Assembly: GCA_965204085.1 (NCBI GenBank)
Contig: CBDBEE010000003.1
Coordinates: 1,068,173 to 1,132,172, forward strand
DNA from: Candidatus Poribacteria bacterium
Lineage (GTDB): Bacteria; Poribacteria; WGA-4E; JAJDTR01
Length of the DNA stretch: 64,000 bases
Direction of reading: 5' to 3'
Part shown: piece by piece, positions 1 to 28,440 of the stretch
How positions within the stretch are numbered: the first letter of the stretch is position 1
Layout of the letters: every line of letters begins with the position of its first letter
Translations under genes and position numbers: made by a program
Notes under the pieces: generated by a model
Told to the model about the DNA's origin: nothing
The model's input: only the letters and a program-made list of their open reading frames with translations
Databases searched by the model: none

Positions 1-1481
1 AAATTCGTCATTTCCTAGCTTGGGTAAAGCCAACATTCTGGTGGTGCATCTTTACCTTTGTCTTGCTGTTTGTCATGCAGTGCATCAACGTGATAATTCG
101 TAAACGCTGGGTTGAACAGGAACGACTGGTGTATCCTATTGTTGAACTTCCTTACCAGATCGCCTGCAAAACCAATTCCTTCTTGCGCAACAAACCGATG
201 TGGTGGGGTTTTGCAATTGCGGCGTCCATCAGTCTCATCAACGGATTAAGTGTGTTATTTCCATCTATTCCATCCATTCCAAATAAGTCCATTCCGTTAC
301 AATCCCTGTTTTCTGAAAAACCGTGGACCGCCTTCTTGGCAGGAGGCAGTTCAATTATCATATATCCCTTTGCTGTCGGTCTCAGCTTTCTGATGCCACT
401 CGACCTGTTGGGATCGTGCCTCCTCTTTTTTCTTCTCTATAAGATACAAATTTTCATCGGGATTATGGCGGGGCTGGAGAAAATGCCCGGTTATCCTTTT
501 CCCTACGAGCAGAATATCGGTGCATATACAGGTATTTCCGTGATCGTACTTTGGAGCGCGCGCCGGCAGATTTGGCGGGCATTTCAACAAGCTATCAAAC
601 GTAAACCAACAGAAGATGCGTCTGAACCGATGCAGTATCGGACTGCGTTCTTGGGAATCCTGCTCGGAGGAATTTTTCTTGTCGGGTTCGGGATGAGAGG
701 GGGCATGGCACTGTGGATTGCCGTTCTGTTCTTCGCTGCCCATTTCCTGACAATTGCTATCGCCCTCACACGTATTCGCGCACAGATTGGTCTTTCAATC
801 CATAATACTACTTCCATTGGACCGCACCACAGTTTGGTCAGTCTGATTGGTACCCGCCGATTAGGTGCACAGAATCTCACATGGTTCTCCCTTTTCTTTT
901 GGTTTAACCGAGACAATCGTAGCCACCCGATGCCCCATCAACTGGAAGCGTTCAAGCTCGCCGAGCGTAGCAAACTCGATTCGAAGGGGTTATCCCGCTG
1001 GATGCTTGGCTTGATGGTCATCGCAATGCCGCTATGTATTGTGATGCTATTGGATACGTTTTATAAACTTGGCGTGGACTCGGGAAGGATAGGTGCACAA
1101 ATTAATAGTTTTGGAAGTCGTGCCTACCGCTTACTCCACCGTTCTTTCATCATGCCGCAAGACTCGCAGCCTGCACATGTCGCCGGCATGGTAATTGGGT
1201 TCGGTTTCACACTCCTATTGGCGGCCATTCGCAGCCGTCTGTTTTGGTGGCCGATTCACCCACTGGGTTATGGAGTTGCTTTCCATATTCACATGTTTTG
1301 GGCAGCTTTTACTATCGGTGCTATCACCAAGTGGTCACTACTAAAGTACGGAGGAATTGGACTCTATCGCAAAGCGGTCCCATTATTCATTGGGCTAGTG
1401 TTGGGAGACTTCACGGTTGGGAGCATTTGGAGCATCTTGGGAATTGCCTTAAACACACGCACGTACACGTTTTATTATTGA
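1..1481 (+). CDS. Polytopic integral membrane protein of unknown function, 5'-truncated by the window edge; paralog of 62690..64000
   Basis: The frame of the 63..1481 ORF stays open back to nt 3 (IRHFLAWVKPTFWWCIFTFVLLFVMQCINVIIRKRW). This aligns with LVEWGIPVLAWTAFIFALVSVMLCINIILRKQW in the ORF at the far end of the window. Many hydrophobic segments. Confidence 0.75.
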   Translation, partial: IRHFLAWVKPTFWWCIFTFVLLFVMQCINVIIRKRWVEQERLVYPIVELPYQIACKTNSFLRNKPMWWGFAIAASISLINGLSVLFPSIPSIPNKSIPLQSLFSEKPWTAFLAGGSSIIIYPFAVGLSFLMPLDLLGSCLLFFLLYKIQIFIGIMAGLEKMPGYPFPYEQNIGAYTGISVIVLWSARRQIWRAFQQAIKRKPTEDASEPMQYRTAFLGILLGGIFLVGFGMRGGMALWIAVLFFAAHFLTIAIALTRIRAQIGLSIHNTTSIGPHHSLVSLIGTRRLGAQNLTWFSLFFWFNRDNRSHPMPHQLEAFKLAERSKLDSKGLSRWMLGLMVIAMPLCIVMLLDTFYKLGVDSGRIGAQINSFGSRAYRLLHRSFIMPQDSQPAHVAGMVIGFGFTLLLAAIRSRLFWWPIHPLGYGVAFHIHMFWAAFTIGAITKWSLLKYGGIGLYRKAVPLFIGLVLGDFTVGSIWSILGIALNTRTYTFYY

Positions 1482-13730: not shown

Positions 13731-13779
13731 GTCCGCGATTGCTCTCTATACGAATCGTGTAGGTTCCCGACATGACATA

Positions 13780-15003: not shown

Positions 15004-15004
15004 C

Positions 15005-16150: not shown

Positions 16151-16230
16151 CGAAACTCCGAAAACCCGAACGATGCTCGCCTCCGTGCTGTGTAGGGACG
16201 GGGCATGTACCAAGACATTCAGGAGGAGGT

Positions 16231-16855
16231 ATGGCACGTGCTGTATTGGTTACATTCGCGGTGATATTTTTAGCAGCGACCAAAGTTTCTGCGGGACAAA
16301 TGGAAGATGTCGTTTACCTTGAGAATGGAGGAATTGTGCAGGGAACGATCCTTGAGCAGATTCCTGACGAGTCGTTGAAAATAAGGCGGGGAGACGGTAA
16401 AGAGTTAAGTATAGGATGCGCGATATTGTGCGAATTTCAAGAGAGCCCGTCCTTGAATCGCGAACCTTTATCCAGAAGAAAAACCCGATGGTAGCGCTCG
16501 GCTTATCATTTCCAATCGTGGGCTCCGGACAGTTCTACAATGGGGAGTACACGAAGGGAGTCGAGTAGGTCTAGGGCTTGTACTCAGCGCGGGTAGCGAC
16601 AACGTGGACAACCCGGATGGAAATCTCGACGCAGACAATGACGATTGGAGGAGTATCCCCGGTTATGTGCTTTTCCTCGGAGGGGCTGTTTGGGCGCTGA
16701 ATGACACGCCAATGTCAGCCAATAGAATCAATCGGCAAAACCTGTGGGTTTCCCACGGGCATTTAATTGAGCTTGACGGCGGACGAGCGGCACTTGGAAT
16801 CGACCCCGTAACATCGCGCAATAGATTGGGCACCGTGCAAACCCTGCGGATTTAG
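16231..16855 (+). pseudogene. Disrupted gene for a small secreted/membrane protein (two frame changes)
   Basis: The signal peptide plus VVYLENGGIVQGTILEQIPDESLKIRRGDGKELSI continues in another frame (MRDIVRISRE...KKNPMVALGLSFPIVGSGQFYNGEYTKG), then in a third (VGLGLVLSAGS...IPGYVLFLGGAVWALNDTPMSANRIN). Confidence 0.55.
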
Positions 16856-17169
16856 ATGGCGTGTGCATTTTTTGGAGATAGCTTCGAGTAGGACAGCAAC
16901 GCCCTCCTCCTAAAATGACAGTAATTGTTTAGTCCATTGACTCCTTGCGGCGAATACAAGTTGCTCCCTTGATCCCTCCCACATATAATCCAAGAATGCC
17001 CCGCTGCCGATAGTCAGGCGCGATATACTGCCAAACTAATATTGCCACTCGTTTTGGCTGAACCAAACAGTTACAAATGACGATTATGGGCGCTCGCAAA
17101 TAGCGTCAATTGAGTCTTTCCAATGCGAGGAAAGGTCTCTATCGTATTTGCTATTCACTCACTTGATCA

Positions 17170-20109
17170 TCAGTATCCGATTCGATACAGGAACTTGATG
17201 TTGCGCCCCGGTTCCGGCATTACCGCTTTGATTCTTGAAAGGTGTTGTCGATATTCCGTGTCAAGGAGGTTATCGATTGCGAACACCGCTTGATGTTGGA
17301 GTCCCCAAACTGAGAACAGATACTGGCAGCCCATATCATAGGCGACGTATCCGTCGGTGGGCTCCTCAAATTCGCCTAACCGGTTCTGCGAATCCGAGAA
17401 TCGCGCCGTTATGTGAAGGTTCAGCGGCTCTGTCACATACCGGAGTGCTAATTTTCCGTTGAGGGGTGGGATTCGTTCAATGGGCACGTCACTGTCCTTT
17501 AAAGTCCCTCTAACGTAGCTCGTGCGCGCTTGCGCGTACACTCGTGGAACAATCTCGGCGTCAACGCTCAACTCGGCGCCGTCAAGGACGGCATCCAGTC
17601 CCCTGTATTGATAGATCCACAACCACCCCGCGCCGCCGGCGCCCCACTCCTTTTCACCGGTGTTTGCCGGAATCAGATAACCGTAAATCTGGTTGCTAAA
17701 AAGGGCTAGATTCAGTTTTACCCGATTTTGCGAATAGCGCAGAAACACCTCCGTTCCCCAACCGTTCTCGGTGCCGAGATCGGAATTGCCGATTTCGTAG
17801 GAGTGGACCGCCAGGTGAGGGCCATCCGAGAAAAGTTCCTCAATTCCGGGAGCACGGAAGGTTTTCATCATCGTTGCGCCCGCCTTTAAATCGCCTGTCC
17901 AATGGTAGATGCTAGACACGGCGCCTGACACGCCTCCGAAGTTTCGGCGTTGTACCGTTCCCGCCTTGGTCACTCTGCCCGTCTTAAACGGTTCAACTCG
18001 CTTGAAGTCGTAGCGAACTGCACCTTGCAGAGTGAAGTCGCTAACTTTTCTCTGATTAAAGTAGAAGCCCGCGATAGAAATCTCCCGTGTGTGCGGCGTC
18101 CAGAAGAATCCCCCGGTCGAATGATCGCGGTATTCGCTCCATATTCCGGTGATGGCGTCATCAGACAGACGAGCAATCGCGGACACATTGGAGGTCAACG
18201 CAATAAACTCGGTGCCGAGCGTGTTGTTGGATTCAAACTCCCGATGTTGATAGCGCGTGTGAGTTGAGTGAAGTTTCAACTTCTCAAGGAGCGATCCGTT
18301 GATCGAATACTCAAGGTTGCTTTCATACCGCTGGCGTTCGAGCTCAATGTCGACTCCCGAGATGTGTCCTTCCGGTGACCCGGGAATTCCGTAGTCGGAC
18401 GTGTAGCTGCCCCCTGACACACCAACGTGCCCCCAATCCTTGACCATGGAAGCGCCGCTTGAAAAATTGGTAGTTGATAGTGACGTGTTCTCCACGACGC
18501 CAACGGGAGTATGCGTATCATCAGCAGTACGGTGATTCCACGCCAGCCGCCATGCAGTGTCACCGATTGGAACCGTCAATCCTGTTGTCGCGGTAATTCC
18601 CGAATTGACCGACTCACTCTGAAACTTGAGGTCTACGGTAGGGTGATGAGGCAGAGACGGCGCGATGGTTTCGCGTTTGACATCTATGACACCGCCGAGA
18701 GTGTTTGAACCGTAGATAAGCGATGCGGGACCACGGATGACCTTGATGTTTTTGGCTGTGCTGGGATCTATAGTAACCGCATGGTCTGCTGAGGACGCCG
18801 ATTTATCGCCGGTGCGCTCGCCATCCTCAAGAATGAGCAGTCGGTCACCGCCCATACCCCGAATGACTGGACGTGCTACCGCCTGTCCCATCGACCGTTG
18901 CGCAATTCCCACCTCATCGCTGAGTGTATCGGCGATGGTTATTCCCATCTTCTCGTCCACTTGCTCTTCGGAGAGTACGAGGTCGGTTGTTTTCTCAAGC
19001 TGTGCGAGGGCATCATCGTCCGGTGTGACCAAGATCTCTTGAAGTTGCACCACGCCGCCCTCTATCGAAACGGTCAATGCCGGTTCATTCGGCGCAGGTT
19101 TAGCGATAAACCCGTGCCGGCGCCCATCCGCTGAATCATAGTGTCCGACGATAGAGCCGTCCTGATTGATACTCCAGCCCTCGGTGCTAACACTGCCCGG
19201 AATCTTAAATTCCTGTAGCCCGTCCCGGAATGTGCCGACATAGGTGAGCGTGACGCCATCCACCGATTTCGCTCGGGAAACGACATCCATTGACTCGTTG
19301 ATACCGTGCACAAAATAGAATTCCAGTCTCTCGGCACGTGAAAGATCGAGAGATATAAACCTGCCATTCCGGGTACGTATGTATGGATGAAACAAGCCAT
19401 CAGCGTCTACGTAACTGCCCACCATGCCACCGCTTGCATTCACGAATTGGGCGTATGTTTCCGATGCCCCGGGGAACTCAATTATTTCGTCTCCCGAAAA
19501 ACCGCGGCGCACCCCGGAAGCATCTATATAATTTCCCGTCAGTGCCCCGGTCGCATTACTAATACCGTATATCTGCGTTTGGACAGCACCTGGAAAATCG
19601 TATTGCCGCAATTCGCCGTTTTCCAAGATAACACCGTGGTAAAGATCGTCGCTGTCTTGGTAGTAGCCGGCAGCTATCCCTGAATTACCGAGCGCATAGA
19701 AAAAGGTGTTCTGTGAACCGGGGAAATCATACGTCGTAAAAACCCCGTCAATGAGCGTAAATCCGATTGTCTTCTCACCATCGGCGCCCCGAGTGTTGCC
19801 TGCGAAATCCCCAAATTCGTTACTCGCAGTCAACTCTAAAAACGCCACGCCGGGGACATCAATAGTCTCAAAAGTATGGTCGGTAGCACCGGTTTCGGCA
19901 ACGGGTTGATTGGCGACCTGTGCATCAGCGTCCCCCAGGATTAATGTGTTGAGACACACCACTAATATAAACGTGTAAAACGGTGTTAAATTCCGAAGTA
20001 TTGTTTTCGTCATGGGACATTCCCTCTTTTGTTTCATCGTTGTTATTCTCGTATAGTAGCATGGAAAGAGCAAGTACAATACAGGTAGTATGAAAAACTG
20101 CTTAATCAT
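17170..20109 (-). CDS. TonB-dependent outer-membrane receptor with an N-terminal tandem-repeat (propeller-like) domain
   Basis: Plug (VARPVIRGMGGDRLLILEDGERTGD...VIRGPASLIYGSNTLGGVIDV), long beta-barrel, C-terminal aromatic residue (YRIGY). Residues ~60-350 are ~45-aa repeats (G.Y.D..G..HGF ... FPG). ATG 20013 (MTKTILRNL..., with signal peptide) is an alternative start. The first 32 codons derive from a duplicated leader. Confidence 0.85.
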   Translation of the reverse strand: MIKQFFILPVLYLLFPCYYTRITTMKQKRECPMTKTILRNLTPFYTFILVVCLNTLILGDADAQVANQPVAETGATDHTFETIDVPGVAFLELTASNEFGDFAGNTRGADGEKTIGFTLIDGVFTTYDFPGSQNTFFYALGNSGIAAGYYQDSDDLYHGVILENGELRQYDFPGAVQTQIYGISNATGALTGNYIDASGVRRGFSGDEIIEFPGASETYAQFVNASGGMVGSYVDADGLFHPYIRTRNGRFISLDLSRAERLEFYFVHGINESMDVVSRAKSVDGVTLTYVGTFRDGLQEFKIPGSVSTEGWSINQDGSIVGHYDSADGRRHGFIAKPAPNEPALTVSIEGGVVQLQEILVTPDDDALAQLEKTTDLVLSEEQVDEKMGITIADTLSDEVGIAQRSMGQAVARPVIRGMGGDRLLILEDGERTGDKSASSADHAVTIDPSTAKNIKVIRGPASLIYGSNTLGGVIDVKRETIAPSLPHHPTVDLKFQSESVNSGITATTGLTVPIGDTAWRLAWNHRTADDTHTPVGVVENTSLSTTNFSSGASMVKDWGHVGVSGGSYTSDYGIPGSPEGHISGVDIELERQRYESNLEYSINGSLLEKLKLHSTHTRYQHREFESNNTLGTEFIALTSNVSAIARLSDDAITGIWSEYRDHSTGGFFWTPHTREISIAGFYFNQRKVSDFTLQGAVRYDFKRVEPFKTGRVTKAGTVQRRNFGGVSGAVSSIYHWTGDLKAGATMMKTFRAPGIEELFSDGPHLAVHSYEIGNSDLGTENGWGTEVFLRYSQNRVKLNLALFSNQIYGYLIPANTGEKEWGAGGAGWLWIYQYRGLDAVLDGAELSVDAEIVPRVYAQARTSYVRGTLKDSDVPIERIPPLNGKLALRYVTEPLNLHITARFSDSQNRLGEFEEPTDGYVAYDMGCQYLFSVWGLQHQAVFAIDNLLDTEYRQHLSRIKAVMPEPGRNIKFLYRIGY

Positions 20110-20261
20110 ATTGTCCTCCGAATAGAGATAGATTGTACTCCCGGCATAAAGACTAATCGAATAGTAGATACAGTTAGATCGTCATTAAGACGACCTAAAA
20201 TTCACCGGGAAACAGGCAGAAATAACTTGGGGAAAACTAAGGTGCATATAAATCTTGTGGA
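20110..20261 (-). promoter_or_regulatory. Conserved ~150-nt intercistronic leader (copy 1; copy 2 at 26453..26605)
   Basis: About 80% identical to the second copy despite being non-coding. Shared blocks are ccaagttatttct, ccggtgaattttaggt and ctttatgccggga. Outer stem tcccgg/ccggga; an inner hairpin covaries (ctaa..ttag vs ctgac..gtcag). Confidence 0.3.
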
Positions 20262-20570
20262 TTAAGCAGCGTAGGCTGGCGGGGCGCGACTACGGATATT
20301 GTCAAGAGGCGCTGTGAATATGAAAGCTAGGTCGAAAGGGGAATGAACTGAAGTGCAAGAACCAAGATTGGGAAGATTTTCAGCGTGGAGCGCAATACCT
20401 AGGTGGTTCGCAATGAAAAAACAAGTAGAACAATCGTGCGATTCGGAATGGCAGTGTTCGTGCTCGTGTTCGTGTACAATCCCGGCAAGGGCAACCGTTA
20501 TCAGATAATAACAGATACCCATCGCAATCACACAGCCGGTAGATATGGTGCGAATTCGATTGTACCGCAA
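20262..20570 (-). CDS. Cys/His-rich single-pass membrane mini-protein (paralog A), possibly DUF2946-like
   Basis: TM segment GCVIAMGICYYLITVALAGIV, then HEHEHEHCHSESHDCSTCFF. About 70% identical to 26606..26914, with synonymous differences upstream of the internal ATG. TTG start with GGAAGGGG RBS. Confidence 0.65.
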   Translation of the reverse strand: MRYNRIRTISTGCVIAMGICYYLITVALAGIVHEHEHEHCHSESHDCSTCFFIANHLGIALHAENLPNLGSCTSVHSPFDLAFIFTAPLDNIRSRAPPAYAA

Positions 20571-20702: not shown

Positions 20703-20890
20703 TAGGGAATAACGATCAAGCGAGTGGATAGCGATCAACTGAGTGGATAACGAAGGAGCAACTGACCCATATGGAAGGCGGTAGAGATCCCATAGAGATC
20801 TTTCAGTGAGGGATCAAACGAGCGGAAAGCAAGTGCGATAGAGATCCGATAGCAAATCCCGTGCGATAGAGATCCCTCGTTATTCCCTAC
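20703..20890. repeat. Composite family-D element bounded by a perfect 14-bp inverted repeat
   Basis: gtagggaataacga (20703-16) pairs with tcgttattccctac (20877-90). The interior holds several degenerate units (gatcaagcgagtggatagc, gatcaaacgagcggaaagcaagtgcgatagagatcc, gtgcgatagagatccc). Confidence 0.7.
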
Positions 20891-21100
20891 AAAAGCCTTG
20901 TCGCAACATCAAATCATTGCCGAAATCATCAAAAGCGTATAGATTGGGGGGTCTCCCAGAACCATATTGGGAATTATTGCAATCAATTTGAACGCAGAGG
21001 GCAAACGCTCCCTCCTGTGGCAAGTCTGATTCGCACACTTAACTCGGAAGAACCGTTCAGTCGCTCGCTTGATCCTCGCCTCGGAGAAAGTGAACGATAT

Positions 21101-21268
21101 ATACTCTGCGTTGGGCATTATTGCGCTTTCTTTTCCAGTGATAATTGATTCTAATAGGACTTACGTAGCACCAGCAGGTGGGGAATCGGAGTTCCCTCTT
21201 ACAAGGGTCACGACCTGGAGATCGCTCCTACAGAAGACGCAATTTCTGACAACGCGGAGTATAATCAA
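21101..21268. repeat. Family-C long MITE-like element, inverted copy
   Basis: Its reverse complement is ~90% identical to 27253..27452 (attatactccgc..tgtcagaaattgcgtcttctgtaggagcgatctccaggtcg.gacc...ctattagaa.caattatcactggaaaagaaagcgcaataat). Confidence 0.8.
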
Positions 21269-21302: not shown

Positions 21303-22091
21303 TTAGAATCTACCTAACCTGAATACATCTGCTTCTAAACGGTCGAGATTAAGGTGGTAGATGCCGTTAAGCATGCCGTCCTCAAATTCTGCTCCGACGC
21401 GCAGTGTACCGTAAAGCACTATCGGTTCATCCTGATGACTGCGGATTCTCTTTTTTTTCGGAACCTCGACAAATATCCACTCATTAAGGAGCGGAATGGC
21501 ACCGAAACAGCACGCCAATTGGTTTTCGAGCAATACAAAAGATTGAAGGTTGTCATCCTCACCTTCAAGCGGTAACATGAACCCACCAATTTCAATTTTC
21601 TCCCCGTTCAGCGCTTTGATTTGCGGCGGAATATCCTCGTCAAGATTTAGCGTAGCGATGTATGCCGGGTCCTCCAATTTCTCCCAGTTCGGCTCTCTGA
21701 TAACAAAGCTAGTGAGTGTCTCGAAGGTGAGTGACCGATATTCCCCCGTGTGTTTGCCGCTCTTTTTGCTTCCGACCCTTGGGATAGAGGAGACATATGC
21801 AGGAGGAGACTGCGCATCAGTTTGGTTTTCAATTTTAGGCATCGTCTCGTTTTCTGGGTTGGCATCGCCGGGAATTGCCCCAGCGACCGCTAACGGGGCG
21901 CCCTGCACTTCAACGGGCTTAGAGGCTGAATCTGACCCCCCTCCGAATTTCCTAAGCGCGCGAAGCGGATGTGATTTCGGCAACATTTGAGAAACGCCGA
22001 GCGACAATATGACGAGAACTGCGCCGGAAATTGCAAAGTGCAGCCAAAGACTGCGTCGCTTTTTGGTATTGGGTCGTTTCATCTCAATCAC
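21303..22091 (-). CDS. DUF3299-family periplasmic protein
   Basis: N-terminal TM/signal. The C-terminal domain LNGEKIEIGGFMLPLEGEDDNLQSFVLLENQLACCFGAIPLLNEWIFVEV...IVLYGTLRVG matches the DUF3299 pattern as I recall it. Confidence 0.6.
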   Translation of the reverse strand: MIEMKRPNTKKRRSLWLHFAISGAVLVILSLGVSQMLPKSHPLRALRKFGGGSDSASKPVEVQGAPLAVAGAIPGDANPENETMPKIENQTDAQSPPAYVSSIPRVGSKKSGKHTGEYRSLTFETLTSFVIREPNWEKLEDPAYIATLNLDEDIPPQIKALNGEKIEIGGFMLPLEGEDDNLQSFVLLENQLACCFGAIPLLNEWIFVEVPKKKRIRSHQDEPIVLYGTLRVGAEFEDGMLNGIYHLNLDRLEADVFRLGRF

Positions 22092-22098
22092 CTCCTAA

Positions 22099-22632
22099 CT
22101 AATGTTCGTGATGCTCCTCGTGATGTCCCTCGTTACCTTCGGGAAAATCGAAATCAACGTCGGCGAAGGTCTGACCTTTGACCGCAATCGACACGATTTC
22201 CGCATGAAATTCGGCTGTCCCTATAAGCTCATCCAATTGCCCTGAGAATTGAGACGTGTCGCCTTCGGTTTCTCCTGTCAGGACGTTCGCGACGGCTTTA
22301 AGTTGCAAAGTGAGTGGCTGTTCCGAATTCAACCGATTTATCTTAAGACCGATTGTTTTCTCCGTGAGTCGTATCGGTTTTTCCGCCTCGCCATCAAGGA
22401 TGTAGGCGGTTAGTTTTCCGGTTGTTTCTTCTAGCACGAACTCAGCGTGGGCGAATTCGTCGCCCAACACAACTAGCGTGCCGCCATGCGGCGCCGTGTG
22501 CTCATGATGGACATGCGTTTCGTGTGTCCCTTCCTGTTCGCCGTGATGCGCACCTTTTTTCTCACAACCAAGTTGGGCGAAGACAATTGCCAAGATCGTT
22601 GTCCATATCACAACGGTGTATTGGATTTTCAT
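22099..22632 (-). CDS. His-rich lipoprotein (putative periplasmic metal-binding protein)
   Basis: Lipobox AQLGC. N-terminal HHGEQEGTHETHVHHEHTAPHGG and C-terminal EGNEGHHEEHHEH. 8-nt gap to the DUF3299 gene. Confidence 0.65.
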   Translation of the reverse strand: MKIQYTVVIWTTILAIVFAQLGCEKKGAHHGEQEGTHETHVHHEHTAPHGGTLVVLGDEFAHAEFVLEETTGKLTAYILDGEAEKPIRLTEKTIGLKINRLNSEQPLTLQLKAVANVLTGETEGDTSQFSGQLDELIGTAEFHAEIVSIAVKGQTFADVDFDFPEGNEGHHEEHHEH

Positions 22633-22710
22633 GATGATTCTCCTTGCATCAAATCGAGTTCACGGTAAAAGTCGTACTGTTGGCGATAATTTAGCCATAT
22701 CAACAGGTTT

Positions 22711-23169
22711 GTGCGGTATAATTTGTATATGAAAGTAGAGCAAGTATATACGGTCCCAAAAGTGTACGTTGAATCATCCGTTATTAGTGCTTACTTCGAC
22801 GAAAGGGTTGATGTTGTCTCGGCCTCACAACGCCACTGGTCCCGAGTTTGGTGGGACCAAGTGCGAACAGAATATGATGTAGTGATTGGCGTTGCTGTCA
22901 CAGATGAACTATCCCATCCGAGTTTTCCCCACGCACCTTACACGCTTGCTCTAGTTGCTGACATTCCCCGAGTTAGGTTTGCCAACGAAATCCGTGACAT
23001 CGTGAATGCCTACATCACTAGAAATCTCATGCCACAGAATCCTGTAGGGGATGCTCTTCACTTGACGCTGGCTTCATACCACAAATGTGATTACTTACTG
23101 ACATGGAATTGTAAACACAATCCAATACTTGCTACGCCAAACCAGCTAATAGGTGAATTCAATGATTAA
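22711..23169 (+). CDS. PIN-like (VapC-family) toxin-type protein
   Basis: VYVESSVISAYFDE...DALHLTLASYHKCDYLLTWNCKH matches the vYvDtSV..gyFDeE...DAlHiAiAt...D.lvSWNfKH family. The C-terminus after KH seems ~20 aa shorter than I expect. The likely start is an internal ATG (22729). Confidence 0.6.
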   Translation: MRYNLYMKVEQVYTVPKVYVESSVISAYFDERVDVVSASQRHWSRVWWDQVRTEYDVVIGVAVTDELSHPSFPHAPYTLALVADIPRVRFANEIRDIVNAYITRNLMPQNPVGDALHLTLASYHKCDYLLTWNCKHNPILATPNQLIGEFND

Positions 23170-23356
23170 AGATCCCCCCATAGTCGAAGATATCCGTCGC
23201 ATCAGGTGCGCTCTCTCGGAGCAATTTGGCCATGATGTGGAAAAATATATTGATTATTTGCAGAGAAAATATGAGCCTTCAGGTCAAGTTGATATGGTAG
23301 AACCTCCGCCAGAGTCATCACCCGATACAACGAAGGGTAATCAACGCGAGGATTAG
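23153..23356 (+). CDS. Small partner protein of the PIN-like gene (antitoxin-like)
   Basis: Overlaps the PIN gene by 17 nt. DPPIVEDIRRIRCALSEQFGHDVEKYIDYLQ resembles the small proteins usually encoded next to this PIN subfamily. Confidence 0.5.
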   Translation: MNSMIKDPPIVEDIRRIRCALSEQFGHDVEKYIDYLQRKYEPSGQVDMVEPPPESSPDTTKGNQRED

Positions 23357-24618
23357 CTAATTGGCGCTAAATTCGTCGCAACATCCGTCCGGTACGCTTT
23401 GACGGCAGGGACAATGCCGGCGATTGTTCCCAAGATTATAACACAAACCGGCGCGATTACGAATACGGGATGAAGTTTTAACAGGTCCAGAACGATGCCG
23501 GTTTGCGCACGAACAATCGTGGACGCCCCCGTGAAGATTGCGCCATAAACGATAAATCCTATGATGACGCCCAGCGCGGCGATGGAAACGGCTTCCAGTA
23601 CGATTACAGCAAACACTGTTTTGCGGCGGGCGCCGAGCGCCCGCAAAATGGCGAATTCGCGCCGCCGCTCGTTGATCGAGTTATAGACACTTGCTAGAAT
23701 CGAACCTCCTGCTACGACAATGACAAGATAGGATACCAGCGCCAAAATCTGATTCATCCAACCGATCTTGTCAAACAGTCTCGCCATTACCGCCCCGATG
23801 GGCCATGCCAGTGTCGCCACCTTTCCCTGTTTGTTTATGGTTGCGTCCATAATGAAACCGATCTGCGGATTCCGGAACTTCAGCATAACGGCACTCACCT
23901 CCTTATGCTCGTCGGGTATCTCTTGTCCGGGTTGGGGGACATAGTCCTCTCCGTCTCCGCGCAACACATGCCCCTCCATCCGATAAATCCCCTCTATCGG
24001 AATCCAGATGACGCGGTCGGATGGTGAATTGGTCGGTGCAAGCACCCCGACCACAGTATATTGCTCGTCGTGCCGCATCGACTCGTCAAATACCAATCCG
24101 TGATAGGGGGTGAAGTTGTCGCCTACCCTCAAGCCCAACTTCTGTGCGGCATAGCTTCCTAGGACAGCCTCTTGCCGAGTTGGGTCAAAGAAACGCCCAT
24201 TCTCTTGTGTCTGAAACCGAACACCATCGCGGTACTCAAACTTCGTGAACAACGCTGTCGTTGTGCCAACAATGCGGTAACCGTGATAGTTGTCGCCAAG
24301 CGCGTAAGGAACGGCAAGTTCGACACGGGGATCGTTTTTCATCGTCTGGTACATCGCCCACGGGATATTTCCGGGAGAAGTTTCGAGATGAAAGACCGTG
24401 TTCAGCACCAGTTGTAACTGACTGCCGCGTGCGCCGAGAACTGCATCAAAGCCGATCTGACCGCCGGTGAACGCGGCTACGGACTGGGCTTTGATGCCGA
24501 TAACCGCCATGACAAGCCCGGTGCCGAGCGCTATCGACAGCGTCGTTATGAGTGTCGATAGCGCGTGCTGTCGTAGGCTGCGCCGAACGATGAATAATAG
24601 ACCGATTCGCTTTATCAT
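23353..24618 (-). CDS. MacB/LolCE-type ABC transporter permease (FtsX domain with periplasmic core domain)
   Basis: TM1, a large periplasmic domain, then three C-terminal TMs with the FtsX-like block INERRREFAILRALGARRKTVFAVIVLEA. Confidence 0.85.
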   Translation of the reverse strand: MIKRIGLLFIVRRSLRQHALSTLITTLSIALGTGLVMAVIGIKAQSVAAFTGGQIGFDAVLGARGSQLQLVLNTVFHLETSPGNIPWAMYQTMKNDPRVELAVPYALGDNYHGYRIVGTTTALFTKFEYRDGVRFQTQENGRFFDPTRQEAVLGSYAAQKLGLRVGDNFTPYHGLVFDESMRHDEQYTVVGVLAPTNSPSDRVIWIPIEGIYRMEGHVLRGDGEDYVPQPGQEIPDEHKEVSAVMLKFRNPQIGFIMDATINKQGKVATLAWPIGAVMARLFDKIGWMNQILALVSYLVIVVAGGSILASVYNSINERRREFAILRALGARRKTVFAVIVLEAVSIAALGVIIGFIVYGAIFTGASTIVRAQTGIVLDLLKLHPVFVIAPVCVIILGTIAGIVPAVKAYRTDVATNLAPIS

Positions 24619-24717
24619 TCTTCCGCGTGAATTGGAGATTACGAAATGTACCGTTCCATGTTACATATTCGTACTCAATGCGGGATTCGGTAGAATCTGA
24701 AATCCATGCTCTGCTGC

Positions 24718-25380
24718 TCACGCACGATTCACTTGCGCGAAATCTGTTGCTTCCTCAAACTGCCCCAAGACCTCCGCATCATGGCTAACGGTGAGTAACG
24801 CGGCGTTGTTTTCGTGACAAATCTCGCGGATGAGTGCTATAGCTTCGCTGGCGTGATGATAATCCAGATTGCCCGTTGGTTCATCGGCAAGCACCAGACG
24901 CGGTCGATTGGCGATGGCGCGGGCAACCGCAACACGTTGCTGCTGCCCCACGGATAACTGCGGTGATCGATATCCGAGTCGATCGCCAAGGCCAACCCGC
25001 TCAAGCAGGTGCTGCGCAAACCCCGCATCAATTCCCTTCCCAAACATCATTCCAAGCATGACGTTTTCGAGCGCGGTGTAACCGGGTAGCAGATTGAATG
25101 TTTGGTAAATGTAACCGATATAGCTGGCACGCAACCTGTCGCGCCCGGACTCCGAGAGGGCAACCATCTCCTCGCCGGAAACAACGATGCGTCCGCTATC
25201 GGCCCCCAGAATTCCGGCGATGAGATTGAGAAATGTCGTCTTCCCAACCCCGCTGCCGCCCCTGAGCACAATCTGCGCACCCTCCTCCATCTCGAAATGG
25301 GGAATGTCAATGATGCGGGTTTGTAAACCTTCAGGCGAAACGTATGCCTTTTGGAGGTCAGTGATTGTCAAGAGCGGCAT
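24718..25380 (-). CDS. ABC transporter ATP-binding protein (MacB/LolD-like)
   Basis: Walker A GGSGVGKTT, Q-loop, signature LSVGQQQR, Walker B LVLADEPTGNLD. Confidence 0.9.
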   Translation of the reverse strand: MPLLTITDLQKAYVSPEGLQTRIIDIPHFEMEEGAQIVLRGGSGVGKTTFLNLIAGILGADSGRIVVSGEEMVALSESGRDRLRASYIGYIYQTFNLLPGYTALENVMLGMMFGKGIDAGFAQHLLERVGLGDRLGYRSPQLSVGQQQRVAVARAIANRPRLVLADEPTGNLDYHHASEAIALIREICHENNAALLTVSHDAEVLGQFEEATDFAQVNRA

Positions 25381-25392
25381 AACAACTCGTGG

Positions 25393-25839
25393 TCAGTCGT
25401 CCAAGGTTTCGGAGTGTTGACAGGTACGGCAAAGGTGACGATTAACGAGGTGGGCGCTCATAAGAAGGAGACCACCAATAACCGTGAAGATGACTTCGGC
25501 GTTTTCTGAAACGCCTAATCGTGCAATAATGATTAGCAGCAAGGCGCCGCCTAGTATCAAAAATACGCGTCGTTTTCGATGGTTTCGAAAGCCCCAAGCG
25601 AGACTGCCTACCGCGATTCCGCTGGCTGAAGCAACCATCACCAGTTCGGTGGACTCGGCCAAAATGAATCCAAGTCCAATGAGCGGCAGCACAGTTATTA
25701 ACAACGGGGCAGCCATGCAATGGACGGCACAAGCAAATGAGAGGCATGCACCGACGTTATCTACGGTCGAATGATTCAGATGTCTGTTCATTTTTTCCCC
25801 TGTGTCAGGCAGTCTTGTTGGCTGCGTTGCTTTCGGCAT
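25393..25839 (-). CDS. MerC-family-like inner-membrane metal transporter
   Basis: Four TM segments. The first carries CLSFACAVHCMAAPLL (MerC-like Cys/His motif). C-terminal HLCRTCQH. Its stop is 12 nt upstream of the ABC ATPase start. The start may be the internal ATG (MNRHL). Confidence 0.55.
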   Translation of the reverse strand: MPKATQPTRLPDTGEKMNRHLNHSTVDNVGACLSFACAVHCMAAPLLITVLPLIGLGFILAESTELVMVASASGIAVGSLAWGFRNHRKRRVFLILGGALLLIIIARLGVSENAEVIFTVIGGLLLMSAHLVNRHLCRTCQHSETLDD

Positions 25840-25903
25840 ATAGAATGCGCAAAACGCAATCGATGTACCGCTATCATGTCTTGCGCATTCAGATTGTTGT
25901 TCT

Positions 25904-26452
25904 TTATGGACTCACTGTTACCGGAATCGGCAACGCCGCCGTGAAGTCGGCATGGTCCCCGTGAAACAGTTCGAGTTTGATTCCGGTTTGTCCGGCTCGA
26001 CGTCCAATTACCTCAAAGGCGAATTCGTCATCGTGGTGATCTTCCTCGTCATCGTGATCATCTTCTTCTTCGTGGTCTTCGGGAAGGTGAATTTCAATAA
26101 TCGACGTATCGTACTCGGATAGCACCAAGCCGAATGCCTCTTCCTCATCATGGCCGTGGCCCTCCTCTTCCTCCTCGTCGTGGTGATCCTCCGCAAAGGA
26201 AATTTCTTCGCTGTCGTGATTTATGAACACGACGTGCACATCAAGTTCATCTCCAACCTTTAGGGAGATTCCGCCGGTTTCCGTTCCCTGGAATTGACGG
26301 TAGACCTCTTTCTCGTCAACTTCGAGAATAAAACCATCGGCATCGACGTGCATTTCATCGTCATGTTCGTCATCTTCGCCCTCTCCGCACGCGATTAGTA
26401 GCATGGAAAGAGCAAGAAACAATATTGGTAGTTTGAAATACTGCTTAATCAT
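25904..26452 (-). CDS. Acidic, His-rich lipoprotein (putative metal-binding)
   Basis: MIKQYFKLPILFLALSMLLIACGEG lipobox. Runs of D/E/H (DHHDEEEEEGHGHDEEE, EDHEEEDDHDDEEDHHDDE). GGAGGA RBS before ATG 26452. Confidence 0.65.
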   Translation of the reverse strand: MIKQYFKLPILFLALSMLLIACGEGEDDEHDDEMHVDADGFILEVDEKEVYRQFQGTETGGISLKVGDELDVHVVFINHDSEEISFAEDHHDEEEEEGHGHDEEEAFGLVLSEYDTSIIEIHLPEDHEEEDDHDDEEDHHDDEFAFEVIGRRAGQTGIKLELFHGDHADFTAALPIPVTVSP

Positions 26453-26605
26453 GTTGTCCTCCAAATAGAAATAGATTGTGTTCCCGGCATAAAGACTGAC
26501 GGGTAAGTAGATACAGTCAGACGATCATTAAGGTTACCTAAAATTCACCGGGGAATAGGTAGAAATAACTTGGGAAAAAACCGAATTGTAGATAAAACTG
26601 GCGGA

Positions 26606-26914
26606 TTAAGCGGCGGAGGCTGGTGGGGCACGGCTACGGACATTGCTAACTATAGCCGTGGATATAAAAGTCGGGTCGAAAGGCGAATGAATTGAAGTGC
26701 GAAGACCGTGATTGGAAAGACTTTCAGCGTGGTACGCAATACCGAGGTGGTTCGCAATGAAAAAGCAGGTAGAACAATCGTGCGATGCGGAATGCTCGTG
26801 TTCATCGTCGTGATCGTGTACAATTCCGGCAATGGCAACCGTTATCAGATAATAACAGATACCCATCGCAATCACGCAACCGGTAAGATTGATGTAGTTT
26901 CGATTGATCCGCAA
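26606..26914 (-). CDS. Cys/His-rich single-pass membrane mini-protein (paralog B)
   Basis: GCVIAMGICYYLITVAIAGIVHDHDDEHEHSASHDCSTCFFIANHLGIAYHAE. Paralog of 20262..20570 and first gene of the minus-strand operon. Confidence 0.65.
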   Translation of the reverse strand: MRINRNYINLTGCVIAMGICYYLITVAIAGIVHDHDDEHEHSASHDCSTCFFIANHLGIAYHAESLSNHGLRTSIHSPFDPTFISTAIVSNVRSRAPPASAA

Positions 26915-27252
26915 CGCCGTTTACCCTTTCAGAAGTGCGCTGTTTCAGAATTAAGGATATTATTCTAGCACGAGCAGACAGGCTTTGTCCAATTTATTGG
27001 TTAGGACTTATGCAGCGTGTCCATTAGTCCCCTGATAAGGGGATTTAGAGGTTTAAAAACAAAAATCTAACCTTGTGTGCCAAACTTACGTATGTTATGT
27101 TATAACATAACCAAGTCAAAGTCAAGTCAAATATAGAATCTTCTAGGGTCATTTAATTCTCCCGTATTTCGATTTCCCGGTCAAGGCTACTGCGGGGCAA
27201 GATGCCCCTCCTTCGGATTCGGGTTGTTCCAAAATCAGTCAAAAAACGGAAA

Positions 27253-27452
27253 ATTATACTCCGCACTGTCAGAAATTGCGTCTTCTGTAGGATCAAACGA
27301 GCGGATAGCGAGTGCGATAGAGATCTCGCGATCTCCAGGTCGCGACCTTTGTACGAGGGAACTCCGATTCCTGACCTGATGGCGCTACGTAGGTCCTATT
27401 AGAAACAATTATCACTGGAAAAGAAAGCGCAATAATACCCAACGCAGAGTAT
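27253..27452. repeat. Family-C long MITE-like element, direct copy, carrying a nested 35-nt family-D insertion
   Basis: Collinear with the reverse complement of 21101..21268, except for the extra tcaaacgagcggatagcgagtgcgatagagatctc at 27293-27327, inside the core hairpin. Confidence 0.8.
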
Positions 27453-27753
27453 AAATAGCCCTATGGAATCTTCTAGGTAGGTGGTTGTCTCTTTTCGGAA
27501 AGATTGATGCTTGTCATAACTGCAAAATATGACACATTTTAATTGATTGCGTAAGTTCTATTGGTATCAAAAGTCGGATGATCCAAAGAATGAGATTGCG
27601 GTTTACGAGTAGTGGGGAATACCCATCCGACAACCCTCTCAGGATTAGATGTGATTACCTTTGATGGGAGGTTTGAGTTTCTTGACAATCGGACGGCAAT
27701 GGCTTATGCTACGTATCATAAAATTCTACTTAACGAAAGGACGGTAATGTATT

Positions 27754-28440
27754 GTGTATCACTTTGTTTCTGTTGTAATGTTTGTTTGTATTTTGACAAT
27801 TGCAAGTTTTTCGGTGCTTGAGGACAGCCATGCGGGTGAAGACGCCTCCGAAAAAACTCGCATTCCGAGCTGGTTTCGAGTTGACACCGACGCCTTGGGA
27901 ACGCATTTTCTGATTGGGGCTACCCATTCGATGGGAGGTGTTTCGCTAGAGTCTAATATTTTCATTGACGATACTCTCGGCGAGTTTGACCTCGGCGTCT
28001 CAATCCCCGCTGTCAGCGGGGATAGTTTTAGTCTCACGCTGCTGCCCATGCTCGGACTCGGGTTTGACTATAAAGCGCCGGATGGGCCTTCCGCCATCTT
28101 TCCACATCTGTTTGTGTTTTTACCCGCCGGCAAAATCTTTTTCAAATCGTGGACGATTGGGTCCATCCATTCTGTATTCGACGAGGAAAGGGATAACGAA
28201 GTCTACACGCGCAATTATCTCACTTACTCCCTTAACAGGACTGTTGCGGTTGGCCCGCAGTTCGAAACCGTAGTGGGTTTGGGCGATAAGAGGACGGTTT
28301 TCAGCCAGATTCTCGGTGTACGGATCAATATCGGATACGGCGAGAATAACACGCTCGGCATCCTTGCCGGGTATGATACCAAGAAAACGGAGGAACAATC
28401 GGGCTTAACGGGTAGGTTGAGTTTTACGCGCAGGTGGTAG
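27754..28440 (+). CDS. Hypothetical secreted protein, possibly a small outer-membrane beta-barrel
   Basis: Signal peptide, alternating hydrophobic pattern, C-terminal ...GRLSFTRRW ending in an aromatic residue. Confidence 0.35.
   Translation: MYHFVSVVMFVCILTIASFSVLEDSHAGEDASEKTRIPSWFRVDTDALGTHFLIGATHSMGGVSLESNIFIDDTLGEFDLGVSIPAVSGDSFSLTLLPMLGLGFDYKAPDGPSAIFPHLFVFLPAGKIFFKSWTIGSIHSVFDEERDNEVYTRNYLTYSLNRTVAVGPQFETVVGLGDKRTVFSQILGVRINIGYGENNTLGILAGYDTKKTEEQSGLTGRLSFTRRW

Follow-up and report, generated by a model that had tools for sequence, protein, structure and literature searches.

The ZrgABCDE system of Vibrio cholerae and V. parahaemolyticus supports growth when zinc is limiting, and the His-rich loop of ZrgA binds zinc (PMC9820375, PMC9817125). 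PA4063-PA4066 of Pseudomonas aeruginosa, which is Zur-regulated, is of the same type. MacB-type transporters are described as exporters or extractors, and PA4064/65 were argued to export pyochelin-cobalt (PMC11481552). CruR (bp2923) of B. pertussis, an upstream ORF that responds to copper, belongs to the DUF2946 family (PMC9426467), and copper acquisition was proposed for cruR-bfrG; CutF of Rhodobacter capsulatus is a DUF2946-like nascent-chain copper sensor (PMC9973294, bioRxiv 10.1101/2025.02.05.636593).

The window analysed here, a stretch of 64,000 nucleotides, comes from a Candidatus Poribacteria genome. Poribacteria are sponge symbionts. We infer, for function and sensed metal alike, that the locus described below is a Poribacteria variant of the Zrg/PA4063-PA4066 zinc-starvation transporter. 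To our knowledge, the characterised relatives of its leader mini-protein are copper sensors only; a leader type known until now solely as a copper-sensing ribosome-stalling switch would head a zinc-uptake operon and the neighbouring receptor.

The transporter core and its partner proteins

The genes are arranged as follows:
25904-26452, minus strand: acidic His-rich protein, probably a lipoprotein (182 aa, start codon ATG 26452); an Ig-like beta-sandwich whose acidic/His loops are disordered
25393-25839, minus strand: MerC-family membrane protein with Cys/His motifs (PF03203, 8.3e-23, 81.5 bits, cut-off 27.6)
24718-25380, minus strand: ABC ATPase, PA4064/ZrgC counterpart (ABC_tran, 6.7e-28)
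23353-24618, minus strand: MacB-type permease, 421 aa, PA4065/ZrgB counterpart (FtsX 3.8e-16, MacB_PCD 3.2e-15)
22711-23356, plus strand: overlapping gene pair, 152 aa and 67 aa, splitting the operon (ORF list)
22099-22632, minus strand: His-rich probable lipoprotein, 177 aa; beta-sandwich core at residues 48-150
21303-22091, minus strand: DUF3299 protein, 262 aa, with N-terminal membrane anchor, PA4066/ZrgE counterpart (PF11736, 35.3 bits, cut-off 22)
17170-20109, minus strand: TonB-dependent receptor, 979 aa; plug 378-474, barrel 558-948

All ORFs named in the initial annotation are present where, and on the strand on which, it had placed them. Its assignments of a MacB-type ABC pair, a MerC-like 4-TM protein and a DUF3299 protein agree with the profile matches above, and the last of these proteins also aligns with PA4066. 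The ATPase is 41% identical to PA4064 (E 1e-46), while the permease matches PA4065, likewise of 421 aa, with 29% identity across 415 of 421 residues (E 2e-53). A reciprocal tblastn search of the genome with PA4065 gave 179 and 176 bits for two operon copies and 45 bits for the next FtsX gene; the operon permease is the only full-length PA4065 counterpart in the genome, and the ABC pair is the specific counterpart of PA4064/PA4065. The second copy is a paralogous locus on another contig, C1. In a survey of 80 loci from more than 10 phyla, DUF3299 almost always adjoins this type of permease. Judged by these comparisons, the core is a split MacB-type ABC machine (ATPase and 4-TM permease with a large periplasmic domain) with a DUF3299 protein, and its likeness to Zrg/PA4063-PA4066 is true homology. 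The label "island" has no support from composition, and the locus is conserved across Poribacteria.

The proposed likeness to Zrg/PA4063-PA4066 does not extend as homology to the His-rich proteins. In both, an invariant Cys comes after a hydrophobic N-terminus, in line with their earlier description as lipoproteins, and both are Ig-like sandwiches, analogues and not homologues of ZrgA/PA4063; no relationship of the acidic one to ZrgA was found. Together they stand in for the ZrgA/DUF2796 zinc-binding protein. The acidic lipoprotein, with C22, H35, D37, H164, H167 and D169 invariant, occurs within the 80-locus survey in Poribacteria loci only. The family of the 177-aa lipoprotein, whose N- and C-terminal His-rich tails are disordered, lies between permease and DUF3299 in Hydrogenedentota, Planctomycetota, Sumerlaeota, Verrucomicrobia and others. 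The mature parts contain 15 His and 55 Asp/Glu in 160 residues (acidic lipoprotein) and 15 His and 30 Asp/Glu in 154, and lack Met and Cys save for one Met in the acidic one. Richness in His, Asp and Glu without Met or Cys is a pattern typical of Zn(II) rather than Cu(I). Because about 300 homologues were found for each, the lipoproteins are conserved families and not chance low-complexity ORFs.

The MerC match spans positions 1-107 of the 108 in the profile. The gene is missing from every non-Poribacteria operon surveyed and, since it is also missing from the related Poribacteria locus L007, is not essential to the core machine; it is an addition to the Zrg-type core. The opposite-strand gene pair also occurs in Poribacteria locus L011, and in the C1 paralogue the 67-aa gene is kept and the 152-aa gene reduced to 24 codons. 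It had been taken for a PIN pair, for which (or for VapBC) Pfam, NCBIfam and PDB gave no support. The receptor lies directly downstream of the ABC locus. No family match was found for the ~340 aa ahead of its plug; its best named relative is ZnuD, whose model scores 190 bits where the TonB-copper model gives 69, both scores being far below cut-off (950 bits for ZnuD).

Zur box, promoters and leader cassettes

The regulatory elements are:
27092-27125, minus strand: distal promoter-like sites TTGACT-N16/17-TAACAT, overlapping the Zur box (promoter motif scan)
27093-27112, no strand assigned: Zur-box-like operator; exact TGTTAT-N3-ATAACA at 27093-27107, overlapping copy with one mismatch at 27098-27112 (motif search)
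26962-26991, minus strand: proximal promoter-like site TGGACA-N18-TG-n-TAGAAT (10/12 match, extended -10)
26606-26914, minus strand: leader mini-protein 1, 102 aa, CruR/CutF-like; TM, His/Asp/Glu cluster, C47-S-T-C50, R95-A-P-P98
26453-26605, minus strand: leader-to-operon spacer, 153 nt, ending in a GGAGGA Shine-Dalgarno sequence; C 24%, G 16%
20262-20570, minus strand: leader mini-protein 2, 102 aa, same CSTC-44-RAPP, 74% identical to leader 1
20110-20261, minus strand: spacer of the second cassette, 152 nt (direct-repeat and spacer comparison)

The exact Zur-box palindrome lies ~180 nt upstream of the ABC operon and occurs four times in the 6.58-Mb genome against 0.39 expected: at this operon, at its C1 paralogue, and twice between a cluster encoding a ZnuA/AztC-like SBP and a ZigA-like COG0523 GTPase and a Zur-like Fur-family gene (121 bits with the Zur model, 39 bits with the next). 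Directly upstream of the latter is a pair of boxes with one mismatch, and its own promoter, TTGACA-N17-TAACAT, resembles the distal promoter here in architecture. The Zur-box core GTTATAACATAAC is also found ahead of Pseudomonas PA4063 homologues. Among further Poribacteria loci, the box is retained in L011 and L023, and none was found at ≤1 mismatch in L007, L021 and L022. A search for operators upstream of 26914, 22632 and 20570 had been suggested; the in-genome motif occurs upstream of the first, whereas no match was found upstream of 22632 (≤2 mismatches) and no Zur box upstream of 20570, the receptor cassette. The initial annotation held that the metal cannot be read from the sequence. 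The operator upstream of 26914 does point to a metal, which we infer from the in-genome motif to be zinc. The proximal promoter, ~48 nt upstream of the leader start, is the best-scoring site of the region and is kept in L011 and L007. Because the Zur box lies ~110 nt upstream of this stronger and more conserved promoter, Zur may control just one of the two.

The Cys/His mini-protein noted earlier is a real ORF; its match to DUF2946 stays below threshold (17.5 bits, cut-off 23.7), and its nature as a leader had gone unrecognised. By its architecture it is a CruR/CutF-type leader and the key component of the locus. Its gene comes first in the unit; 44 residues separate CxxC from RAPP, which is followed by a 4-residue tail. 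Sub-threshold DUF2946 matches in the family always fall at the C-terminal end of the profile. C47, C50 and RSRAPP are invariant across 17 relatives, of 29 family members 28 have a CxxC-RAPP spacing of 44 and one has 43, and the family is present in 97 of 151 Poribacteria genomes. Third-position changes over the S-R-A-P-P-A codons are synonymous; therefore, selection acts on the peptide. CxxC is a classic Cu(I) site.

The whole cassette is doubled as a direct repeat of ~480 nt, ahead of the ABC operon and of the TonB receptor, the latter copy of the mini-protein having been overlooked in the initial annotation. It comprises the leader, the spacer of ~150 nt, the GGAGGA ribosome-binding site and the first ~20 codons of the next gene, a signal peptide starting MIKQ, and the two genes behind the copies are mutually unrelated. 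Similar CxxC...R(A/S)PP mini-proteins precede Zrg-type operons in several phyla; we found no paper tying the two together. No Rfam family matched the spacer. Metatranscriptomes of relatives weakly indicate that leader, spacer and operon genes are transcribed.

Proposed mechanism and alternative explanations

We consider it probable, from the sequence comparisons above, that the locus serves to acquire zinc during zinc starvation and represents a Poribacteria-specific form of the ZrgABCDE/PA4063-PA4066 type. Transcription of the ABC operon would be controlled through the Zur box over the distal promoter, and, going by motif architecture and the published CruR/CutF mechanisms, the leader cassettes would add post-transcriptional control of operon and receptor. 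The ribosome would arrest at RAPP once the CxxC/His site has just cleared the exit tunnel. With the site metal-free, the arrested ribosome would hold downstream expression on, either by blocking Rho, as in CruR, or, in the manner of CutF/SecM, by keeping the GGAGG ribosome-binding site from base-pairing with the C-rich Ala-Pro-Pro codons; metal on the nascent chain would release the arrest and turn the uptake genes off. Since no covariation support was found for a spacer RNA structure and C exceeds G only mildly, neither the Rho nor the masking mechanism has direct support. The sensed metal is most likely zinc, with copper as the alternative. Zinc, as such or as a chelate, may cross the outer membrane through the receptor, the lipoproteins may buffer or shuttle it, and the MacB-type ABC would work by mechanotransmission, acting from the periplasm, instead of forming a channel; the MerC-like protein is a candidate inner-membrane route in the Poribacteria lineage.

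An unlikely alternative is a copper system, in which the leaders are true CruR orthologues sensing copper, receptor and ABC operon acquire copper, and the Zur-like box is there by chance or serves a different regulator. CxxC, RAPP and their spacing are as in copper-responsive CruR (PMC9426467), most DUF2946 proteins stand ahead of copper genes (PMC9426467, PMC9973294), the cargo of MerC-family proteins is thiophilic metals, and the 177-aa lipoprotein has weak fold matches to the copper/iron-binding proteins P19/FetP/HftA. However, the box is common only to the zur, znuA and zigA loci of the genome and shares its core with the PA4063 homologues, the ABC/DUF3299 core has its orthologues in Zur-regulated zinc systems, the receptor scores better with ZnuD than with the copper model, and the lipoproteins are nearly devoid of Met and Cys in their mature parts; nor did the ORF and domain survey of the locus find CopC, PCuAC, Sco, YcnI or a multicopper oxidase.

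Slightly less likely still is export or detoxification, with the MacB-type ABC expelling a metal, metal chelate or metallophore, and a leader of CutF polarity in which metal causes stalling and switches the operon on. Exporters and extractors are known to have the MacB_PCD and FtsX architecture (PMC11481552), CutF-like leaders are found ahead of detoxification genes (PMC9973294), and base-pairing between the Ala-Pro-Pro codons and the GGAGG downstream is possible, fitting a switch that masks the ribosome-binding site. Against this, a Zur box implies expression in zinc starvation and not in excess, the leader also heads a TonB-dependent receptor, an importer, so that its polarity must suit an uptake gene, neither RND, CDF or P-type efflux genes nor metallophore biosynthesis genes lie nearby, and the homologous V. 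cholerae system aids growth at low zinc (PMC9820375). Zincophore export in starvation would still fit zinc acquisition. That the ABC pair is a dedicated LolCDE-type extractor, freeing the two lipoproteins from the inner membrane and sending them to the outer membrane or cell surface to catch zinc for the receptor, we regard as very improbable. The best NCBIfam model for the ATPase is LolD (178 bits), the permease matches LolCE (49.5 bits), and two lipoproteins are encoded in the operon beside the receptor; but every Lol score is far below cut-off, the permease is much closer, over its full length, to PA4065, and ZrgA/PA4063 of Proteobacteria have an ordinary signal peptide and are not lipoproteins (PMC8561739 and sequence).

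Comparison with described systems

With ZrgABCDE and PA4063-PA4066 the locus shares the split MacB-type ABC with adjacent DUF3299 (ZrgE/PA4066), the upstream Zur-box core, a His-rich extracytoplasmic partner and a small single-TM protein beside the first gene (ZrgD in Vibrionaceae). It differs in that a ZrgA/DUF2796 homologue is absent, one Ig-like lipoprotein taking the place of ZrgA and one lying between permease and DUF3299. The MerC-family gene and the operon-splitting pair are added, a ZnuD-like receptor with its own leader follows directly downstream, and the architecture of the small protein is clearly that of a CxxC-44-RAPP arrest peptide.

Like CruR, the leader is the first gene of its unit, with an N-terminal hydrophobic segment, an invariant CxxC and RAPP 3-4 residues from the C-terminus; the CxxC-RAPP spacing is fixed in both (45 in CruR, conserved to 1-2 residues, PMC9426467; 44 here), the spacers are long (162 nt versus 152-153), and a TonB-dependent receptor lies downstream. 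In contrast to CruR, the leader is shorter (102 versus 145 aa), falls below the Pfam DUF2946 threshold, carries a long His/Asp/Glu cluster directly ahead of CxxC and stands in a putative zinc (Zur) regulon and not among copper genes; the genome is not GC-rich, no rut site is evident, and one copy heads an ABC operon, an association absent from the CruR and CutF papers. CutF likewise acts in cis immediately upstream of its target, and in both cases the ribosome-binding site further downstream could be masked. However, CutF has CxxxC, needs a signal peptide, is copper-induced and controls a detoxifying multicopper oxidase; because the targets here would be uptake genes, the opposite polarity is expected.

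The MerC-family protein resembles MerC of Tn21-type mer operons in its full-length profile match and in Cys motifs in the first hydrophobic segment and at the C-terminus, yet merR/T/P/A are absent and the gene sits within a putative zinc-regulon operon in only part of the Poribacteria. ZnuD, the zinc-piracy receptor of Neisseria, is the best-scoring named TBDT model for the receptor, and the zinc context is shared; the receptor differs from ZnuD in its low score, in its N-terminal extension, and in having a leader-peptide cassette in place of its own Zur box.

Gene content and relation to the Zrg and PA4063-66 systems

The most interesting feature of this locus is a leader cassette resembling those of CruR and CutF, the copper-responsive leaders of DUF2946 type, placed inside a predicted zinc regulon. 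Except for one opposite-strand pair, all genes of the locus lie on the minus strand.

Features of the locus in upstream-to-downstream order
26606-26914, minus strand: mini-protein 1 of 102 aa (leader 1), first gene
25904-26452, minus strand: acidic His-rich protein (182 aa)
25393-25839, minus strand: MerC-family protein, covering profile positions 1-107 of 108 of Pfam PF03203 with 81.5 bits
24718-25380, minus strand: ABC ATPase (ABC_tran)
23353-24618, minus strand: permease with MacB_PCD and FtsX domains (Pfam/NCBIfam)
22711-23356, plus strand: gene pair splitting the permease from the 177-aa protein
22099-22632, minus strand: second His-rich protein (177 aa)
21303-22091, minus strand: DUF3299 protein, 35.3 bits against a cut-off of 22
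20262-20570, minus strand: mini-protein 2 (leader 2)
17170-20109, minus strand: TonB-dependent receptor of 979 aa

The gene set of the initial annotation was confirmed, since MerC, ABC_tran, FtsX with MacB_PCD and DUF3299 all match Pfam/NCBIfam models; DUF3299 was absent from 14 control genomes. By their named homologues, the proteins come from a member of Candidatus Poribacteria. Neither merR, merT/P nor merA, the context of a mer operon, was found among the operon genes. The plus-strand pair had been labelled PIN, for which Pfam, NCBIfam and PDB sequence searches gave no PIN/VapBC support: the 152-aa protein had zero Pfam/NCBIfam matches even at E up to 10, the sole match of the 67-aa protein was VapB at E 0.099, and the PDB search returned nothing for the pair. 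The term "island", read as horizontal acquisition, is not sustained either, as the block does not stand out in GC content and the locus has been kept throughout the phylum. Metatranscriptome contigs of coral and marine origin, 88-97% identical to the window, map onto leader 1, the spacer together with the start of the lipoprotein, the junction of lipoprotein and MerC, MerC itself, the end of the permease, DUF3299, leader 2 and the start of the receptor; relatives therefore transcribe the locus, at read depths too low to reveal attenuation. No Rfam family was detected between 16 and 29 kb at E up to 1.

The ABC block lies between two inverted repeat copies of ~170-200 nt (91-95% complementary) that look like MITE copies; the one at 21097-21265 is downstream of DUF3299, the one at 27253-27456 upstream of the Zur box. 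The copy at 27253-27456 carries an extra ~35-nt unit of the GCGATAGAGATC type at 27290-27325. Short GATCAAnCGAGnGGATAGCGA / GCGATAGAGATC units recur at 20703-20890, 17133-17168 and 27290-27325, that is, between the two cassettes, just past the receptor stop codon and inside the MITE. Divergent from leader 1, a plus-strand gene at 27754-28440 encodes a 228-aa protein with an N-terminal signal-like segment. It is kept at the same position in every Poribacteria locus seen (L005 of the same genome; L007 and L011 of others). The protein has no Pfam/NCBIfam family match and no meaningful PDB sequence match; it could be one more part of the system in the outer membrane.

The suspected resemblance to Zrg and PA4063-66 held and could be sharpened by direct comparison with the PA4063-66 operon, taken from a P. 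aeruginosa record in the plasmid collection. Permease, ATPase and DUF3299 protein match PA4065, PA4064 and PA4066, respectively. The permease shares 29% identity with PA4065 over 415 of 421 residues (E 2e-53) at equal length, the ATPase shares 41% identity with PA4064, and the DUF3299 domain can be aligned with PA4066 (E 8e-7), whose structure is PDB entry 4HSP. In the reverse search with PA4065, the two permease copies of the genome scored 179 and 176 bits and its next FtsX gene 45 bits. Given this gap and these identities, the ABC pair is a specific PA4064/65 counterpart and not a generic Lol/MacB relative. The locus further has a separate ATPase and 4-TM permease with MacB_PCD and FtsX domains, a DUF3299 (ZrgE/PA4066) gene adjoining the permease and, in silico, a Zur operator sequence upstream. 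By these sequence features it is a new variant of the Zrg/PA4063-66 system with a predicted role in zinc acquisition.

A scan of one genome per species with the permease alignment gave 80 loci, and in nearly all with enough flank a DUF3299 gene adjoins the permease. The permease tree has two clades. Clade II (Proteobacteria, Bdellovibrionota, Bryobacter and others) has ZrgA/DUF2796; clade I (Poribacteria, FCPU426, Hydrogenedentota, Planctomycetota, Sumerlaeota, Pyrinomonadales and Verrucomicrobia) is without ZrgA, and in many of its members the 177-aa His-rich family stands between permease and DUF3299. Within the 80 loci, the acidic 182-aa lipoprotein and MerC were found in such operons only in Poribacteria, with MerC missing in one Poribacteria lineage (L007/L008). 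L007/L008 have an insertion between ATPase and permease (11796-16669), made up of two ORFs and the gene for an 893-aa N6/N4 DNA methyltransferase. The permease of this distant lineage is called as two ORFs in L007/L008 and as one in L009.

Each of the two His-rich proteins has ~300 homologues, and both families show an invariant Cys after a hydrophobic N-terminus together with invariant His/Asp positions. AlphaFold models from the family alignments have beta-sandwich cores (mean pLDDT 63 and 75, cores about 80-95) surrounded by disordered His/Asp/Glu loops or tails. The model of the acidic protein matches generic Ig-like domains only; that of the 177-aa protein gave no significant fold match, and weak matches to the copper/iron-binding P19/FetP/HftA proteins recurred. 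Homology to ZrgA/PA4063 (DUF2796, ferredoxin-like) was rejected, with an hhalign probability against PA4063 of 1-2%; the ZrgA Pfam family has no match at the locus, and a ZrgA HMM built for the survey found none throughout the Poribacteria/PVC clade. Nor are the two lipoproteins related to one another. In ZrgA, a disordered His-rich loop supplies several zinc sites (PMC9820375). The His-rich lipoproteins are probably functional analogues of ZrgA; they are not homologues of it.

The core of MacB-type ABC and DUF3299 is conserved far outside Proteobacteria, and its metal-binding partner has been exchanged for unrelated His-rich proteins. Such an exchange beside a retained core argues that the partner buffers or hands over metal in a generic way rather than serving as a specific docking fold. 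This bears on a system whose mechanism is still contested, importer versus exporter, and in which ZrgD and ZrgE are without assigned role. As regards the biology of sponge symbionts, it suggests that Poribacteria share zinc scavenging as a conserved trait.

The predicted Zur regulon

Upstream of mini-protein 1, where the initial annotation suggested looking for a Zur operator, the exact box ATGTTAT-AAC-ATAACAT is present at 27093-27107. It is identical to the Zur-box consensus known from Proteobacteria (cf. the Caulobacter boxes, PMC4176598) and overlaps promoter-like sites of the form TTGACT-N16/17-TAACAT. The exact 12-base pattern occurs 4 times in the 6.58-Mb genome, against 0.39 expected. 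One site is that of the window and one lies at the same position before the operon paralogue on contig C1 of the same genome. The other two share one spacer on contig C1. To one side of it lie the genes for a ZnuA/AztC-type binding protein and then a ZigA-like COG0523 GTPase, to the other a Fur-family gene (L016, 8338-8835) with a 1-mismatch box pair directly upstream. The best model for this Fur-family gene is Zur with 121 bits, the next (PerR) reaching 39 bits. The exact box is kept in two other Poribacteria genomes (L011, L023), and Pseudomonas homologues of PA4063 carry the same core, GTTATAACATAAC, about 40 nt before the first gene. We conclude that the ABC operon belongs to a predicted Zur regulon. 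Caution on Zur control is advised by a stronger and more widely conserved promoter-like site (26962-26991) downstream of the box, and in some Poribacteria loci a Zur box was not found. The operators also sought before the receptor cassette (20570) and before 22632 are absent at up to 2 mismatches. Two 2-mismatch matches lie inside the leader ORFs (20496-20510 and 26840-26854), where GTTAT-N6-ATAAC falls in codons for C-Y-Y-L-I-T-V; with half-sites 6 nt apart, not 3, they are probably a by-product of coding.

For the TonB-dependent receptor, ZnuD is the best named model (190 bits versus 69 for TonB-copper), both being far below their cut-offs; for the ZnuD model NF038289 the cut-off is 950. Its ~340-aa N-terminal extension (~19060-19930), for which an HMM search gave no match, contains G-x-x-G-x-Y repeats that by eye resemble those of a 642-aa HAF-repeat protein. 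The latter is encoded beside the ZigA/ZnuA cluster, the core of the predicted Zur regulon, on contig C1 (L016, 2191-4119); it begins with a region containing GDDGHDHE and ends in a sorting domain of T9SS type.

Leader peptides and their duplicated cassette

The leader is the first gene of its unit, in the window as in L005, L006, L007, L011 and L021-23. In 17 relatives, C47-S-T-C50 and R-S-R-A-P-P(95-98) are invariant, RAPP (R95-A-P-P98) being followed mostly by a 4-residue tail before the stop. The CxxC is present in 29/29 family members, and its spacing to RAPP is 44 residues in 28 of them and 43 in one; these 29 include all distant members from a profile search of 1.84 billion proteins, which yielded 15 representatives only. 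Third codon positions vary synonymously across S-R-A-P-P-A, which argues that the peptide itself is under selection. Against Pfam PF11162 (DUF2946) the leader scores 17.5 bits and does not reach the gathering score of 23.7. Sub-threshold DUF2946 matches were obtained for 7/17 family members, with distant members at 14-23 bits, always aligned at the C-terminal end of the profile. The family occurs in 97/151 Poribacteria genomes sampled, often as two copies ~6 kb apart.

Both leaders of the window are part of a ~480-nt direct repeat (20054-20532 versus 26396-26876, 82-84% identity). It spans the leader gene, a spacer of 152/153 nt, a GGAGGA ribosome-binding site and ~20 codons at the start of the gene that follows, which begins with MIKQFFILPVLYLLF in one copy and MIKQYFKLPILFLAL in the other. 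Since the receptor and the lipoprotein are unrelated beyond this cassette-derived start, the regulatory unit has been copied whole, including the signal-peptide start. In a cassette of another Poribacteria genome (L011, about 10590-10600), the MIKQ start of the receptor reads ATG ATT TAG with a stop at codon 3, so that either translation of this receptor has to begin at a later codon or the cassette is in decay.

The whole genome holds 4 leaders. On contig C1, one leader precedes a second ABC operon and another a second receptor; these two units are separated by about 47 kb and share 76-99% protein identity with the window copies. L005 (1345000-1364000) and L006 (1385000-1404000) of contig C1 represent a large segmental duplication: the second ABC operon has its FG-GAP/T9SS-tail neighbour and the 228-aa gene in common with the window, and the second leader and receptor unit has the same upstream dehydrogenase/oxidoreductase genes as the window at 12.5-16.1 kb. 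This duplication could be true paralogy or a co-assembled strain variant.

Single-sequence folds of the spacer gave an unremarkable z of 0.0 for the ABC copy and a moderate z of -2.8 for the receptor copy, and RNAalifold on 11 cassettes gave -4 kcal/mol with no compensatory pairs. Hand counts covered three helices, in which GGAGG pairs with the APP codons, codons 1-4 of the following gene pair with the stop region, and CCCGG pairs with CCGGG; pairing was possible in 89% of cells, without covariation and no better than in shuffles. For the APP-codon/GGAGG helix the figure is 95% of cells, its pairs being invariant and hence uninformative. A small inner spacer hairpin consists of CTGAC...GTCAG before the ABC operon (26480-26510) and of CTAA(C)...(A)TTAG before the receptor (20135-20165); this is one apparent G:C to A:T exchange between the cassettes, seen by eye and not detected by RNAalifold.

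Proposed mode of action and comparison with known systems

We hypothesize that Zur would repress the distal promoter at sufficient zinc. Once the leader is translated, its TM segment would enter the membrane and the ribosome would arrest at RAPP just as the CxxC/His site, lying 44-48 residues earlier in the chain, clears the exit tunnel. The arrested ribosome would hold the downstream genes on, and metal binding would free it and turn the uptake genes off. This polarity, which is that of CruR, is the only one sensible for a receptor gene. The effect of release could be exerted via Rho or, alternatively, via pairing of the C-rich APP codons with GGAGG. As for the sensed metal, the context would speak for zinc and precedent for copper. 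Permeases of MacB type lack a substrate channel, as is established for the family and discussed in PMC11481552; the ABC pair would therefore act on the periplasmic side. The route across the inner membrane, which is missing from the system, could in this lineage be provided by the MerC-family protein of the zinc operon, this being the weakest step of the proposal.

Elsewhere in the 80-locus survey, too, the first operon gene is directly preceded by a small ORF whose C-terminal part fits CxxC-(41..46)-R[AS]PP: besides Poribacteria, such minis were found in a Planctomycetota MAG, FCPU426, Endozoicomonas, a deltaproteobacterium, Oleiphilaceae, Hyphomicrobium and relatives, and Photobacterium (93 aa, CAVC...RSPP). 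Aeromonas caviae likewise has one (104 aa, CTLC-44-RAPP); the pattern gave only 1 spurious match among 6,490 ORFs. In Vibrionaceae, zrgD is the gene at this place. Its product has been described as 101 aa long with a single TM segment, as having no known function and as not needed in growth assays (PMC9820375); its annotation is DUF2607 (PMC9817125). The leader has only a 13-bit match to DUF2607 (E 0.1), and the Photobacterium mini matches neither DUF2607 nor DUF2946. By position, size and motifs, the leader-type minis may correspond to ZrgD; Pfam gives no link between them and DUF2607. Scores below the Pfam threshold may explain why the minis are absent from HMM-based surveys, and a full-text literature search found no paper joining Zrg operons to CruR/CutF-type leaders.

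Head-of-operon minis in Poribacteria, Planctomycetota, FCPU426 and Alpha-, Gamma- and Deltaproteobacteria suggest a concrete function for the ZrgD position and would extend metal sensing by arrest peptides from copper to the zinc regulon. That the CxxC-44-RAPP leader is a zinc-sensing ribosome-arrest peptide and a general, overlooked component of Zrg-type systems across phyla, ZrgD of Vibrionaceae included, is a speculation we put forward with considerable doubt. If true, the leader would be the first nascent-chain sensor for zinc and a second, post-transcriptional lock atop Zur, and the Poribacteria cassette a portable module placing any exported protein under leader control.

In P. aeruginosa (L014), oprG, an outer-membrane protein gene, directly follows PA4066 (5466-6164); there as in Poribacteria, an outer-membrane component is thus encoded after the DUF3299 gene. 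The CruR gene opens its operon and has a long spacer behind it; once copper binds the nascent chain, the arrest is relieved and Rho can terminate transcription ahead of a TonB receptor gene (PMC9426467). The polarity is reversed in CutF of R. capsulatus, where a stem-loop masks the ribosome-binding site (PMC9973294; bioRxiv 10.1101/2025.02.05.636593). With this DUF2946 design the leader shares the CxxC, the C-terminal RAPP, the ~45-residue spacing between them and the first position followed by a long spacer, and a metal-dependent ribosome arrest is predicted for it.
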